Origin: a virus
Length of the DNA: 5,665 bases
Reading direction: 5' to 3' (one strand)
Virus record (IMG/VR): IMGVR_UViG_3300045988_004551
Span: 1-5,665 of that record
The translations under genes were made by a program, and so were the position numbers. The notes beneath the pieces are model-generated. The model was not told the DNA's origin. It saw only the letters and a program-made list of their open reading frames with translations, and made no database searches. Below are positions 2,973-5,665 of this stretch, in pieces. The first letter of the stretch is position 1; every line of letters starts with the position of its first letter.

Positions 2973-3992
2973 ATGGGATGCAATAAACCGCTAATCCGGT
3001 TTTATGTACCTCATGACAGAGAAGCGAGTGGGCGAGTGTACTCACTCGCTTCTTTTAACGAGATACACAAGACCAAAATGACATACGAAGACCTGATGTA
3101 TCGCAAAGATGTAATGATGATACCATGCGGACAATGCACAGGATGCAAACTACGCAAACGCAAAGACTGGGCCACACGAATGGAGCTGGAAGCATACAGC
3201 CACGAAAAGGAAAGCATCTGGTTTATCACACTAACCTATGATGACGACCATGTACCAACACAAGACACAGAAACAGGGGAAATCTTCAAGGGAGGCATAA
3301 ACGTCTGGAAAGGCACCTCAGAGCGTCCCAGAACGGTGCAAACTTTAAGCGTGGAGGATGTCCAACTATTCATGAAAAGGCTTAGAAAGGCCGTCAGCGG
3401 GCCTCTCAGGTACTTTCTAGCCGGAGAGTATGGAGACAACACCTCAAGACCGCACTATCACATGATACTATACGGATGGAATCCAGACGACTTAAAACCA
3501 ATTCACAAACTGTCAAGATTTGGACACTACACGAGCAATAAGCTGGTCAGAATCTGGGGACAAGGCACGGTCGATATAGCTCAAGCAACACCAGAAACAT
3601 ATAACTATGTAGCTGGATACGTGACCAAGAAACTATACGGAAACGACAAGGACAGGTATAAAAAAATGGGACTCATACCTCCATTCTGCGTGATGAGCCG
3701 AAAGCCAGGACTCGGGGACGAATGGTTTCAAAAGAATCAAGAAAGGCTATGGCAGCTTGGATACATCCAGCTGACAAACGGCAAGAGAGCAGCCATTCCA
3801 GAATATTATTGGCGAAAGCTGGAAGCTGAAAATCCTGAAAAAGCGTGGAGAATCAAGCGGTATCGACAAGAAAAAGCCATTGCGTCCCTAATCGAAAGAA
3901 ACATGGAAACTGACAAACAGTATGCCGAACAACTGGCCGATAAAGAAGCAGTCATGAAGAAGAAGATGTCCAAAGCAAAGGGCGTTTTTTAG
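2973..3992 (+). CDS. VP4: Replication initiation protein VP4 (HUH rolling-circle endonuclease, phiX174 gpA-like), 339 aa
   Basis: ATG 2973 abuts the VP2 stop (TAAATG), with AGGAGG at 2954-2959. RCR motifs are readable in the translation: motif 1 FITLTY (3222-3239), HUH motif 2 HYHMILY (3453-3473), and two-tyrosine motif 3 YVAGYVTKK (3606-3632). A Cys cluster PCGQCTGC lies at 3123-3146. Confidence 0.93.
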   Translation: MGCNKPLIRFYVPHDREASGRVYSLASFNEIHKTKMTYEDLMYRKDVMMIPCGQCTGCKLRKRKDWATRMELEAYSHEKESIWFITLTYDDDHVPTQDTETGEIFKGGINVWKGTSERPRTVQTLSVEDVQLFMKRLRKAVSGPLRYFLAGEYGDNTSRPHYHMILYGWNPDDLKPIHKLSRFGHYTSNKLVRIWGQGTVDIAQATPETYNYVAGYVTKKLYGNDKDRYKKMGLIPPFCVMSRKPGLGDEWFQKNQERLWQLGYIQLTNGKRAAIPEYYWRKLEAENPEKAWRIKRYRQEKAIASLIERNMETDKQYAEQLADKEAVMKKKMSKAKGVF

Positions 3993-4001
3993 CTCTGGTG
4001 T

Positions 4002-4059
4002 CACTCAGCCAAGTAACTATCAAGTATATATACTTGGCTGAGTGTTTTTTAGTTTTTTT
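4002..4059 (+). terminator. Strong stem-loop followed by T runs, immediately after VP4. Rho-independent terminator of the main transcription unit; a possible additional origin role is hypothetical.
   Basis: CACTCAGCCAAGTA (4002-4015) pairs perfectly (14 bp) with TACTTGGCTGAGTG (4031-4044). The loop is 15 nt (ACTATCAAGTATATA). It is followed by T6 (4045-4050) and T7 (4053-4059). Confidence 0.8.
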
Positions 4060-4063
4060 ATCA

Positions 4064-4104
4064 GCGCGCGCGCACGCGCACGTAATCGCGCACGTACACG
4101 CACG
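4064..4104. repeat. Alternating purine-pyrimidine CG/CA tract (Z-DNA-prone) containing a direct repeat of CGCGCACGTA
   Basis: GCGCGCGCGCACGCGCACGTA (4064-4084) is 21 nt of perfect Pu/Py alternation. CGCGCACGTACACGCACG (4087-4104) is 18 nt more. CGCGCACGTA occurs at 4075-4084 and 4087-4096. The tract is flanked by T-rich and AT-rich DNA. Confidence 0.85.
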
Positions 4105-4150
4105 ATTTTTATTATATTATTATTTACTTGTTGTAGTCGTAGTAGTAGGG
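4105..4150. repeat. Near-pure AT tract with TTA microrepeats, followed by GTA trinucleotide repeats. Candidate easily melted element.
   Basis: 4105-4132 (ATTTTTATTATATTATTATTTACTTGTT) has only 2 G/C in 28 nt. 4133-4147 reads GTA GTC GTA GTA GTA. Confidence 0.7.
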
Positions 4151-4199
4151 AGTGTTGAAATGTTGAATACTATGAATTTTTATCCGTGGAACGATATTT

Positions 4200-4208
4200 T
4201 GTGGTTAA
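4200..4208 (-). promoter_or_regulatory. DnaA-box-like 9-mer (TTAACCACA on the - strand, 1 mismatch to TTATCCACA)
   Basis: The + strand reads TGTGGTTAA, preceded by TTT. It is part of a repeated TTTTGTGG-WWAA unit. Confidence 0.45.
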
Positions 4209-4226
4209 TTTTGATGTTGATACTTT

Positions 4227-4235
4227 TGTGGATAA
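4227..4235 (-). promoter_or_regulatory. Perfect consensus DnaA box (TTATCCACA on the - strand)
   Basis: The + strand reads TGTGGATAA, the exact reverse complement of TTATCCACA. Confidence 0.6.
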
Positions 4236-4261
4236 CTTGTTGAATTGTTGAAAGTGTAGCA

Positions 4262-4270
4262 ATATGCACA
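4262..4270 (+). promoter_or_regulatory. DnaA-box-like 9-mer (ATATGCACA, 1 mismatch to TTATNCACA) overlapping the left arm of a hairpin
   Basis: Read directly. Its orientation is opposite to the other three boxes. Positions 4265-4270 lie in the hairpin stem 4265-4284. Confidence 0.35.
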
Positions 4271-4284
4271 AAACCATTTGTGCA
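4265..4284. other. Perfect 8-bp hairpin TGCACAAA-ACCA-TTTGTGCA
   Basis: 4265-4272 is the exact reverse complement of 4277-4284, with a 4-nt loop ACCA. Confidence 0.8.
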
Positions 4285-4290
4285 ACTTTT

Positions 4291-4299
4291 TGTGGAAAA
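4291..4299 (-). promoter_or_regulatory. DnaA-box-like 9-mer (TTTTCCACA on the - strand; fits the relaxed TTWTNCACA)
   Basis: The + strand reads TGTGGAAAA, preceded by TTTT, and lies immediately upstream of the triple TGTTGAAAG repeat. Confidence 0.45.
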
Positions 4300-4337
4300 C
4301 CTGTTGAAAGTGTTGAAAGTGTTGAAAATGTAATTAG

Positions 4338-4410
4338 AGGCAGCTCGGCAGCTGGCCGAAAGGTTACGTCATGCTCTTCGTACGGCGCACCGCGCCTAGC
4401 GCATGACCTT
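4338..4410. other. GC-rich multi-hairpin island in an otherwise AT-rich spacer. Candidate ssDNA structural element (complementary-strand origin?) or small structured RNA.
   Basis: Hairpin 1 is CAGCT-CGGC-AGCTG (4341-4354). A GAAA tetraloop mini-stem is GCC-GAAA-GGT (4355-4364). An outer 7-bp stem GTCATGC (4368-4374) / GCATGAC (4401-4407) encloses the inner hairpin GGCGC-ACC-GCGCC (4384-4396) and the CGTACG palindrome (4379-4384). Confidence 0.6.
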
Positions 4411-4430
4411 CAATGCAAAATTCTTCTAAC

Positions 4431-4475
4431 TTTTTTTAAAAAAATCTTGACTTTTTTCTAAAAATATGGTACAAT
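4431..4475 (+). promoter_or_regulatory. Promoter P1: T7A7 UP-like tract, -35 TTGACT, 17-nt spacer, extended -10 TGgTACAAT
   Basis: TTGACT is at 4447-4452 and TACAAT at 4470-4475, with an exact 17-nt spacer. TG lies at 4467-4468. TTTTTTTAAAAAAA is at 4431-4444. The first downstream gene starts at 4504. Confidence 0.75.
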
Positions 4476-4503
4476 AAAATCACAGAAAGGAAAGGTGAAC
4501 ACC

Positions 4504-4899: not shown

Positions 4900-5127
4900 A
4901 TGGAGAAAAAACTGTGGAATGCAAGAGACCAGACCGACGAGAACCTTATGCGGGAACTGACAAAGACCTACAAGGCAATAGATGCCGCGTACAAAATGGT
5001 GCGACAGGCCGCAAACATCGAAGACGCAAAGTATTATATTGACATTGCGTTTAAGAAAAAAGCATTCGCCAGTAACATTGAGGTGGAAATCCTCAGAAGG
5101 GACATCAACCATGGCAAAGAGGAGTAA
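4900..5127 (+). CDS. Hypothetical protein, 75 aa, predicted mostly helical and charged (orphan)
   Basis: ATG 4900 is preceded by GGAGG (4889-4893) at 6-nt spacing. Its 3' end overlaps the next gene by 17 nt. I recognise no family. Confidence 0.65.
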   Translation: MEKKLWNARDQTDENLMRELTKTYKAIDAAYKMVRQAANIEDAKYYIDIAFKKKAFASNIEVEILRRDINHGKEE

Positions 5128-5230
5128 AGTTCGCAAATCCAAAGACGCGAAAATCTATAACAAGACCGCTCGAAAGACAAAGGCTATCAATCTGGGAAGC
5201 GGAGCGATGAGAGGAGGAATCCGGCTATGA
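5111..5230 (+). CDS. Small highly basic protein, 39 aa. Likely the DNA-binding/packaging protein (phiX174 J / chlamydiaphage ORF8 analogue).
   Basis: The product is MAKRSKVRKSKDAKIYNKTARKTKAINLGSGAMRGGIRL, with 13 of 39 residues K/R. The C-terminal MRGGIRL and internal TKAIN match my recollection of gokushovirus small basic proteins. ATG 5111 lies inside the track ORF 4982-5230. The stop overlaps the next ATG (ATGA at 5227-5230). Confidence 0.65.
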   Translation: MAKRSKVRKSKDAKIYNKTARKTKAINLGSGAMRGGIRL

Positions 5231-5335: not shown

Positions 5336-5572
5336 ATGAACGTATACGGAATTTTCGACAACTGCGTGATGGGCTATATCACCATCTTTACCGAACGTGA
5401 CGACAAAGTGGCCGAACGCAATTTCAAAATCGCACTGACCGATGAACGAAACATCATGAGCAAGACACCGAGTGATTATCGGCTGGTACGACTGGCAAAG
5501 TTTGACGAGAAAACGGGCCTGTTTAAGAACGAAAAGGAGAACATCTTCGATGGCGTATCGCTCAGTAAGTAA
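5336..5572 (+). CDS. Conserved gokushovirus-type small nonstructural protein (ORF5/VP5-like), 78 aa
   Basis: ATG 5336 is preceded by AAGGAGA (5324-5330); the track's earlier start at 5276 is an upstream extension. The product MNVYGIFDN..Y...F..R.D..AERNF........(N).....PSDYRLVRLAKFDEKTGLF fits the remembered pattern (Y.I.D....F..PF....D..A.R.F ... P.DY.L..LG.FD..TG) of the small ORF5/VP5 family of Microviridae. The last 6 nt (AAGTAA) lie in the terminal repeat. The 3' end overlaps the VP3 start (5550) by 23 nt. Confidence 0.7.
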   Translation: MNVYGIFDNCVMGYITIFTERDDKVAERNFKIALTDERNIMSKTPSDYRLVRLAKFDEKTGLFKNEKENIFDGVSLSK

Positions 5573-5665
5573 CTTCAGGGAAACCGCAACAGCAAAGGCC
5601 ACCGAAGCCGGAGAGACCGTGAGGCGCACATACCTCTGGGAACTCAACGAGAAAGGCGAAAAGGT
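5550..5665 (+). CDS. VP3: Internal scaffolding protein VP3, 5' portion (the same gene as 1..463; continues past the window end / around the circle)
   Basis: ATG 5550 has AAGGAGA at 5534-5540. The in-frame stop TGA at 5457-5459 bounds the frame upstream. The reading MAYRSVSNFRETATAKATEAGETVRRTYLWELNEKGEKV joins seamlessly to the ORF at the window start. Confidence 0.75.
   Translation, partial: MAYRSVSNFRETATAKATEAGETVRRTYLWELNEKGEK
5567..5665. repeat. Terminal redundancy, right copy (identical to 1-99)
   Basis: 99/99 identity with the window start. Confidence 0.95.

Follow-up and report, generated by a model that had tools for sequence, protein, structure and literature searches.

A chromosome-origin-like module as a candidate DnaA-operated opening element in gut gokushoviruses

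In the basal unwinding system (BUS) of bacterial origins, a layout documented in Firmicutes, a DnaA box is followed by a GC-rich spacer of 4-5 bp, a run of some five DnaA-trios and AT-rich DNA. The trio consensus is 3'-GAT-5', or 5'-CTA-3' when read on the strand that shows the box in forward orientation (PMC8235120, PMC7561715). Its central A is critical, and C is the substitute best tolerated in vivo; in C. difficile the trio reads CTACTACTATTACTACTA, CAC-CTA-CTA-CTA-TTA-CTA-CTA. Microvirus replication, for its part, is modelled on phiX174, with Rep nicking, a host helicase and complementary-strand priming. Here we describe a non-coding module of about 225 nt (4105-4328) whose layout recalls the BUS. 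It lies in a stretch of 5,665 nt, hereafter the window, from IMG/VR record IMGVR_UViG_3300045988_004551. The window contains one complete gokushovirus genome, circular and about 5,566 nt long, with bases 1-99 duplicated at 5567-5665, and its relatives are gokushoviruses of human, pig, monkey and other faeces. A first, sequence-only reading of this DNA had noted a cluster of DnaA boxes and was aware of none described in Microviridae; we found no literature report of DnaA boxes, DnaA-trios or a DnaA role in a microvirus origin, and no mapped gokushovirus origin either. What appears to be new about this putative oriC-type opening module is its carrier, along with a box that is atypical.

The module begins with an AT-rich tract (4105-4132, 26 of 28 bases A/T), noted at the outset and now recognized as the most AT-rich 28-mer of the genome. 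An AT-rich stretch is found at the same place in most aligned relatives, and the tract is a candidate for the DNA-unwinding element. On the right it extends over the first two of seven in-frame triplets on the plus strand, TTG TTG TAG TCG TAG TAG TAG (4128-4148). The last five of these (4134-4148) are DnaA-trio-like, 5'-TAG-3' being 3'-GAT-5', and compare with DnaA-trio runs of at least three, typically about five, units with a conserved central A. A 4-nt G-rich spacer, GGAG (4149-4152, plus strand), then separates the triplets from the first repeat of an iteron array. On the minus strand, the window reads TTTCAACA-CTCC-CTA CTA CTA CGA CTA-(CAA CAA)-AT tract, and the element order and polarity on one strand are those of the BUS at B. 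subtilis incC, C. difficile oriC2 and H. pylori oriC2. The polarity of E. coli oriC is alike, the 13-mers being followed on one strand by GC-rich DNA and by TGTGGATAA. The oriC-like arrangement that had been suggested is thus borne out, and is stronger than was claimed, since trio-like triplets and GGAG stand between the AT tract and the repeats.

Module versions were gathered from GenBank and IMG/VR microvirus genomes, 55 at first and later 95 distinct ones, all in gut gokushoviruses; triplets, spacer and proximal box were parsed in 94 of them, and the repeat profile and 9-mer density come from the 55. The versions share one order ahead of the repeats, an AT-rich tract, the triplets TTG TTG TAG NNG TAG TAG TAG and a short spacer. 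No other block of the module is as conserved as the triplet run. TAG stands at each of the three triplets nearest the box in 86-92 of the 94 versions. In the fourth triplet the first base is free, the third is always G, and the centre is A in 48 versions, C in 46 and never G or T, which matches the published tolerance of C for the central A. The spacer is exactly 4 nt long in 77 of the 94 versions and mostly G/C-rich. The likeness to the BUS therefore lies in a 4-nt G/C-rich spacer, in five TAG-type triplets that are strictest next to the box, with a central A replaceable by C alone, in an AT-rich tract beyond the triplets and in further same-orientation boxes behind the proximal one. The module differs from the BUS in that it is carried by a 5.6-kb single-stranded DNA phage genome and does not lie beside dnaA/dnaN. 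It also differs in its conserved box, TGTTGAAA, which has T for the G pairing with C6, in the three mismatches of the window's proximal boxes and in the many boxes that abut at 8-9 bp, and its binding by DnaA is a prediction.

The repeats behind the spacer form an array of 11 iterons in the same orientation (4153-4328, plus strand; consensus TGT[T>>G]GAAA[A/G]), namely TGTTGAAAT at 4153, TGTTGAATA at 4161, TGTGGTTAA at 4200, TGTTGATAC at 4215, TGTGGATAA at 4227, TGTTGAATT at 4238, TGTTGAAAG at 4246, TGTGGAAAA at 4291, TGTTGAAAG again at 4302 and 4311, and TGTTGAAAA at 4320. The four 9-mers picked out by the sequence-only reading are where it had placed them: TGTGGTTAA at 4200-4208, TGTGGATAA at 4227-4235, the latter being the exact complement of TTATCCACA, ATATGCACA at 4262-4270 and TGTGGAAAA at 4291-4299. 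Those at 4200, 4227 and 4291 have at most one mismatch to TTATCCACA on the minus strand, in one orientation, and together with ATATGCACA on the plus strand they make up the sub-cluster reported at 4197-4299. The single mismatch attributed to ATATGCACA is correct against TTATNCACA and not against TTATCCACA, from which it differs at two positions, so that it falls outside a scan at ≤1 mismatch. Such a scan with TTATCCACA gave five matches in the whole window against 0.90 expected, and none of 200 shuffles reached five. Dinucleotide shuffles of 3993-4500 alone yielded a mean of 0.14 matches with P(≥3) = 0.0006, and three matches inside 100 nt occurred in none of 5000 such shuffles. Across the 55 related genomes, the density of TGTGNAWAA is 3.68 per kb in the homologous module versus 0.05 per kb elsewhere (about 70-fold), and 46 of the 55 modules hold at least one TTWTNCACA match. 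The box cluster is therefore neither a chance nor a composition effect, and the enrichment over shuffled controls that had been put forward as a check is indeed present, three boxes at ≤1 mismatch arising in less than 0.1% of composition-matched shuffles.

The notion of a free-standing cluster of DnaA boxes had nevertheless to be abandoned: the boxes are members of the 11-iteron family, whose conserved form is TGTTGAAA(A/G). The profile drawn from 559 sites in the 55 modules is T-G-T-[T467/G82/C10/A0]-G-A-A-A-[A/G], and the repeats come in about 10 copies per genome, in a single orientation and at spacings of 8, 9, 11 and 12 nt. Given this profile, and because T and G are exchanged at given iteron slots among close relatives, the apparent DnaA boxes are G-variants of the TGTTGAAA repeat. 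The iteron consensus, TGTTGAAAA, fits the relaxed DnaA consensus (TGTGNAWAA on this strand) at all specified positions but one, and at this deviant position the DnaA-type G is the main variant (82 of the 92 non-T sites). Conservation in relatives, which had been put forward as a check, holds for the 9-mers, which are dense in homologous modules, and fails for the perfect box, which is lineage-specific. Spo0A boxes, which read TGNCGAA, were considered and rejected, as position 4 is C in just 10 of the 559 repeats.

We then compared the module with the genomes that carry it. Its DNA keeps 70-77% identity in genomes that share just 33-57% identity with the window in the VP1 and VP4 proteins. At least three independent lineages carry it in inverted orientation with respect to all genes: L015 and L146 versus their clade (L215), L261 versus L260, and a whole clade (L016, L017, L160, L222, L257) in which it has also been relocated, to the gap between VP2 and VP4, with its AT end against the hairpin next to VP4. 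These inversions move the AT tract, the triplets and the repeats together as one unit. Strand composition, measured at third codon positions and genome-wide as skew, is the same in co-oriented and inverted genomes, so that the skew test of whether module orientation sets the packaged strand is uninformative or mildly against it. None of the protein families is common to all four clades with the module and missing from the clade without it; the module is thus independent of strand, and no phage gene is tied specifically to it. DnaA boxes, an AT-rich region and iterons are also combined in the origins of P1, F, pSC101 and R6K, but these plasmids encode their own iteron-binding initiator. An iteron-type plasmid origin would be expected to occur together with such a gene, whereas none tracks the module, and no plasmid homologue of the module was found. 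The identity of the module amid divergent proteins, its flips and the lack of a tracking protein family lead us to favour a host partner acting on double-stranded DNA.

About 10 of 80 genomes selected by VP4 are without the module. The module-less clade, phiMH2K and Chp2 show no cluster of boxes at ≤1 mismatch and no trio run. No near-identical genome pairs with and without the module were found, and the module-less genomes form a separate clade with about 35% VP4 identity. In Chp2 (Chlamydia phage 2, L265), two tandem TGTGCAAAAA repeats at 2820-2875 are the genome's only two TGTGNAWAA matches; they are followed by phased A-tracts and precede the ACTTGAT hairpin of the phage by about 80 nt. 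Possibly they are a distant counterpart of the iteron array, in a phage whose host is very different. Next to the module, an alternating purine-pyrimidine (CG/CA)n tract of about 40 nt, CGCGCGCGCACGCGCACGTAATCGCGCACGTACACGCACG (4064-4104), abuts the AT tract. It is Z-DNA-prone, similar tracts flank the module in several clades, and they keep their place when the module inverts (L260 versus L261). This tract might set an unwinding boundary or promote inversions.

We tentatively propose, as the reading we find the most plausible, that the module is a duplex-opening element operated by host DnaA on the double-stranded replicative form. The trios, the spacer, the unwinding element, the polarity, the consensus-grade boxes among weaker ones and the likely host partner argue for it. 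According to this scenario, the ATP form of host DnaA would bind the consensus-grade boxes TGTGGATAA, TGTGGAAAA and TGTGGTTAA, and in many relatives the TGTGGAAAA next to the triplets, and would then fill the weaker TGTTGAAA sites cooperatively. A DnaA filament would extend from the spacer-nearest repeat onto the TAG triplets of one strand and melt the adjacent AT-rich tract. The opened DNA could serve to load the host helicase, whether for theta-type copying of the replicative form or for its maintenance as an episome; alternatively, the opening could expose a nearby single strand to the phage Rep protein VP4. A coupling of the phage to host DnaA status, one of the two ideas initially proposed, is possible. 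Going further, the module could be a working miniature chromosome origin, at which host DnaA opens the replicative form and gives rise either to a second, theta-type or DnaA-gated, replication or to Rep nicking at or beside the triplets (AACTTG/TTGTAG); we regard this extended version as rather unlikely. If it were true, a second replication mode could support plasmid-like carriage, and Rep nicking at DnaA-melted triplets would be a hybrid of chromosomal and rolling-circle initiation.

Several observations weigh against DnaA as the binder. The perfect TGTGGATAA is confined to the closest relatives of the window (14 occurrences in 55 modules), and more distant relatives have TGTTGAAAA in its place, with a key position of the DnaA box broken. 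The dominant conserved repeat, TGTTGAAA, is not a DnaA box, as it has T at the position of C6 in TTATCCACA, a base that the Schaper-Messer consensus TTWTNCACA demands and whose change has consequences for the affinity of a DnaA box. Position 5, at which DnaA accepts any base, is fixed in the repeat (G in 531 of 559 sites), and a base that DnaA fixes is relaxed, so that the information profile of the repeat lies one position off that of canonical DnaA. Many repeats also abut at 8-9 bp, tighter than published box pairs with their gaps of 0-3 bp. The published search rule asks for a box with at most two mismatches to TTATCCACA, 0-16 bp from the trios and forward on the CTA strand (PMC8287927). 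The window departs from this rule because its two proximal repeats, TGTTGAAAT and TGTTGAATA, have three mismatches each, and its nearest box at ≤1 mismatch is 52 nt away. Among the relatives, the spacer-proximal box is TGTGGAAAA (one mismatch) in 27 of 94 versions and either TGTGGAAAA or AGTGGAAAA (two mismatches) in 40; it has at most two mismatches in 50 of the 94, in agreement with the rule there, and its orientation is right throughout. A search for host origins with the loose pattern TTGTTGTAGNNGTAGNNNTAG in 185,579 genomes found neither the repeats nor the module in any of the 120 matches listed. The boxes were scored against the general DnaA consensus, which may not be the box preference of the host. 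A Firmicutes host is suggested by the strong ribosome-binding sites and sigma-70-type promoters of the window and by published CRISPR-based host assignments of gut microviruses. Finally, the left edge of the module, AACTTGTTGTAG, is identical at 10 of 10 nt to the hairpin loop of phiMH2K, and the triplets could on this account belong to a Rep recognition site.

Alternatively, the module may be origin-like and its TGTTGAAA repeats bound by a protein other than DnaA, be it a core phage protein such as VP4, for which they would form a bind locus or enhancer of rolling-circle initiation with nicking perhaps at AACTTG/TTGTAG, or a host DNA-binding protein. We see this as a possible but doubtful explanation, and it is with the same reserve that we consider the DnaA-box look of a few copies as a by-product of a T/G-tolerant position. 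The conserved form of the repeat speaks for such a protein, as do the minority status of G at position 4 (82 of 559), the T/G swap between close relatives, an information profile unlike that of canonical DnaA and the tight 8-9 bp spacing. The left edge ACTTGTTGTA is the same as the loop of the phiMH2K hairpin and is similar to the nick motif ACTTG/AT. Chp2, whose host is very different, has TGTGCAAAAA repeats close to an ACTTGAT hairpin of its own, and Rep-binding direct repeats near nick sites are known in rolling-circle plasmids such as pMV158. Yet the module is tracked by no family of phage proteins, VP4 identity among the clades that share the repeats is only 33-57% and the VP4 of module-less relatives is equally distant, and the module flips relative to the covarying CTTGATA hairpin. 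A non-DnaA binder also leaves the trio-like rules unexplained, namely the 4-nt spacer, the central A or C and the five triplets. A further possibility is DnaA binding without DNA opening, in which the array would be a sink or sensor in the manner of datA or of the DnaA boxes proposed for the injection-stop region of T5, stopping host initiation, tuning transcription or tethering the DNA. With some 11 sites on each genome, a replicative form present in many copies would be expected to titrate DnaA, and the array is followed about 120 nt downstream by a promoter-like site. T5-like phages have eight conserved boxes, host DnaA boxes on a mobile replicon, in which TTATCCACA is mixed with TTATCAACA, the C6-to-A change that the module repeat shows too; these boxes are, however, paired in inverted repeats and argued to be non-origin, on evidence that is likewise computational. 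A sink needs no trio run, no fixed 4-nt spacer and no AT tract, yet these are the most conserved parts of the module, and the position of the module with respect to promoters and genes varies between clades; we therefore consider a sink or sensor improbable. Neither T5 nor P1, F, pSC101 or R6K has been described with a trio run.

The other idea put forward initially was that DnaA, on a box in the hairpin at 4265-4284, builds a DnaA-DnaB-DnaC (ABC) primosome on single-stranded virion DNA for complementary-strand synthesis. The perfect 8-bp hairpin (TGCACAAA/TTTGTGCA, plus strand) is real and overlaps ATATGCACA, a DnaA-type 9-mer overlapping a hairpin at 4262-4284 as at ABC primosome sites, and ABC primosomes on DnaA-box hairpins are known from plasmid single-strand initiation sites. 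It is nonetheless lineage-specific and not a conserved part of the module: hairpin and ATATGCACA occur in only about 30 of the 95 versions, with a stem that is invariant where present and shows no compensatory change, and the right arm TTTGTGCA alone is kept more widely. An ABC site would hold a complete box in double-stranded form in a conserved hairpin of the packaged strand, whereas here the stem includes 6 of the 9 box bases of ATATGCACA (TGCACA). The remaining repeats are direct and so cannot become double-stranded in the virion strand, and at least three module inversions, with unchanged strand composition, disfavour an element specific to one single strand. The primosome explanation is for these reasons very improbable. 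As for the absence of any functional element, the region is AT-rich and repetitive and is overlapped by mechanical open reading frames (ORFs) at 3998-4243 and 4264-4461, so that composition, a simple tandem repeat, a hidden coding region or an RNA gene might be invoked. Composition is rejected by the local shuffles, the 95 versions show position-specific conservation, and the 8/9/11/12-nt spacings together with TAG/TGA stops break the reading frames across relatives, which leaves this explanation a negligible chance. No PHROG match was found for ORF 4264-4461 and no Rfam family for the module. A coding region was rejected, since the frame is not kept in relatives and the tblastn matches of the 3998-4243 and 4264-4461 ORFs reflect DNA conservation. 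A promoter array was rejected as well: TTGAAA resembles a -35 hexamer, though the module has no promoter-like site.

A strong candidate for the rolling-circle origin of VP4, from its sequence and covariation, is the hairpin adjacent to the VP4 gene. This element (3997-4044, plus strand) consists of GGTGTCA and a hairpin with stem 4004-4015/4031-4042 and an invariant loop, TATCAAG (4018-4024), which is the reverse complement of CTTGATA; the minus strand of the element carries TACTTGATAG at 4017-4026. CTTGATA occurs in the pC194/pUB110 origin. The element lies 25-45 nt past the VP4 stop in 47 genomes, and 8 of its 11 stem pairs show compensatory changes. The nick site of phiX174 is CAACTTG/ATA. 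Equivalents are found at 2903-2945 in Chp2 (L265), at 3296-3340 in phiMH2K (L264) and at about 4594-4640 in L317; Chp2 and phiMH2K have similar hairpins with ACTTG(A/T)T in the loop. The module-less L317-L320 have a GTGTCA-hairpin-ATCAAG element next to VP4, and a motif scan also lists L315, L316 and L322. The orientation of this hairpin is unchanged when the module flips. With respect to the phiX174 A/pC194 Rep group, whose nick is CTTG/ATA, two likenesses are thus to be told apart: the neighbouring hairpin has the CTTGATA heptamer in its loop on the minus strand, and the left edge of the module, AACTTGTTGTAG, resembles the nick motif and the phiMH2K loop. The module, however, is missing from relatives that keep the hairpin and flips independently of it, whereas a double-strand origin of VP4 would be present in all relatives sharing the Rep and stand in a fixed relation. 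The module is therefore probably not the rolling-circle origin; since module-less relatives retain the VP4-adjacent hairpin, it is rather an add-on than an essential rolling-circle origin. No mapped nick site in any gokushovirus was found in the literature.

The strand that carries the heptamer varies among these phages. CTTGATA is on the non-coding strand in the clades of the window, and the equivalent motif is on the coding strand in Chp2, phiMH2K, L315 and L322. The coding strand is strongly A-rich (T-A skew of -0.28 to -0.38), with coding-strand ATCAAG, in the window, L160, L179 and L316-L320; T equals or exceeds A (+0.03 to +0.18) in Chp2, L315 and L322, with coding-strand CTTGAT, phiMH2K being an exception (-0.29). 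In this small sample, these data hint that the packaged strand may be antisense to the genes in the gut clades.

All genes of the window, including several small ORFs, are on the plus strand: VP3 (53-463), VP1 (460-2124), VP2 (2166-2972), the Rep protein VP4 (2973-3992) and a VP5-like DNA-binding protein (5336-5572). The sole long non-coding stretch of the genome, from 3993 to about 4500, contains the box cluster. Downstream of the module, a sigma-70-type promoter-like site, TTGACT-17-TACAAT (4447-4475, plus strand), is given as context only. Between the repeat array and this promoter, a GC-rich stretch (4338-4410) has inverted repeats, GTCATGC...GCATGAC, with TAGCGCA. Its conservation is poor beyond the closest relatives, and it could be a complementary-strand origin or a terminator. 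A highly basic protein of 39 aa (MAKRSKVRKSK...; 5111-5230 in the window), like phiX174 J and Chp2 ORF8, is found in 52 of 55 relatives, and its gene overlaps the end of a 75-aa ORF (4900-5127) present in 38 of the 55.

The meaning of these findings depends in part on whether DnaA operates the module. If the DnaA reading is true, one would expect TTTTCAACA-type boxes at the dnaA-dnaN origin of the host, or altered base-contacting residues in domain IV of its DnaA. We know of no DnaA-trios outside a chromosome, and those of the module would then be the first. Abundant gut phages would tie the replication of their double-stranded form to the initiation state of the host. A cultured gokushovirus shows long-term carriage of circular phage DNA without integration, for which a DnaA-operated module would provide a mechanism. 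Even without DnaA as the binder, the module and the covarying hairpin are concrete candidates for the missing origins of gokushoviruses.

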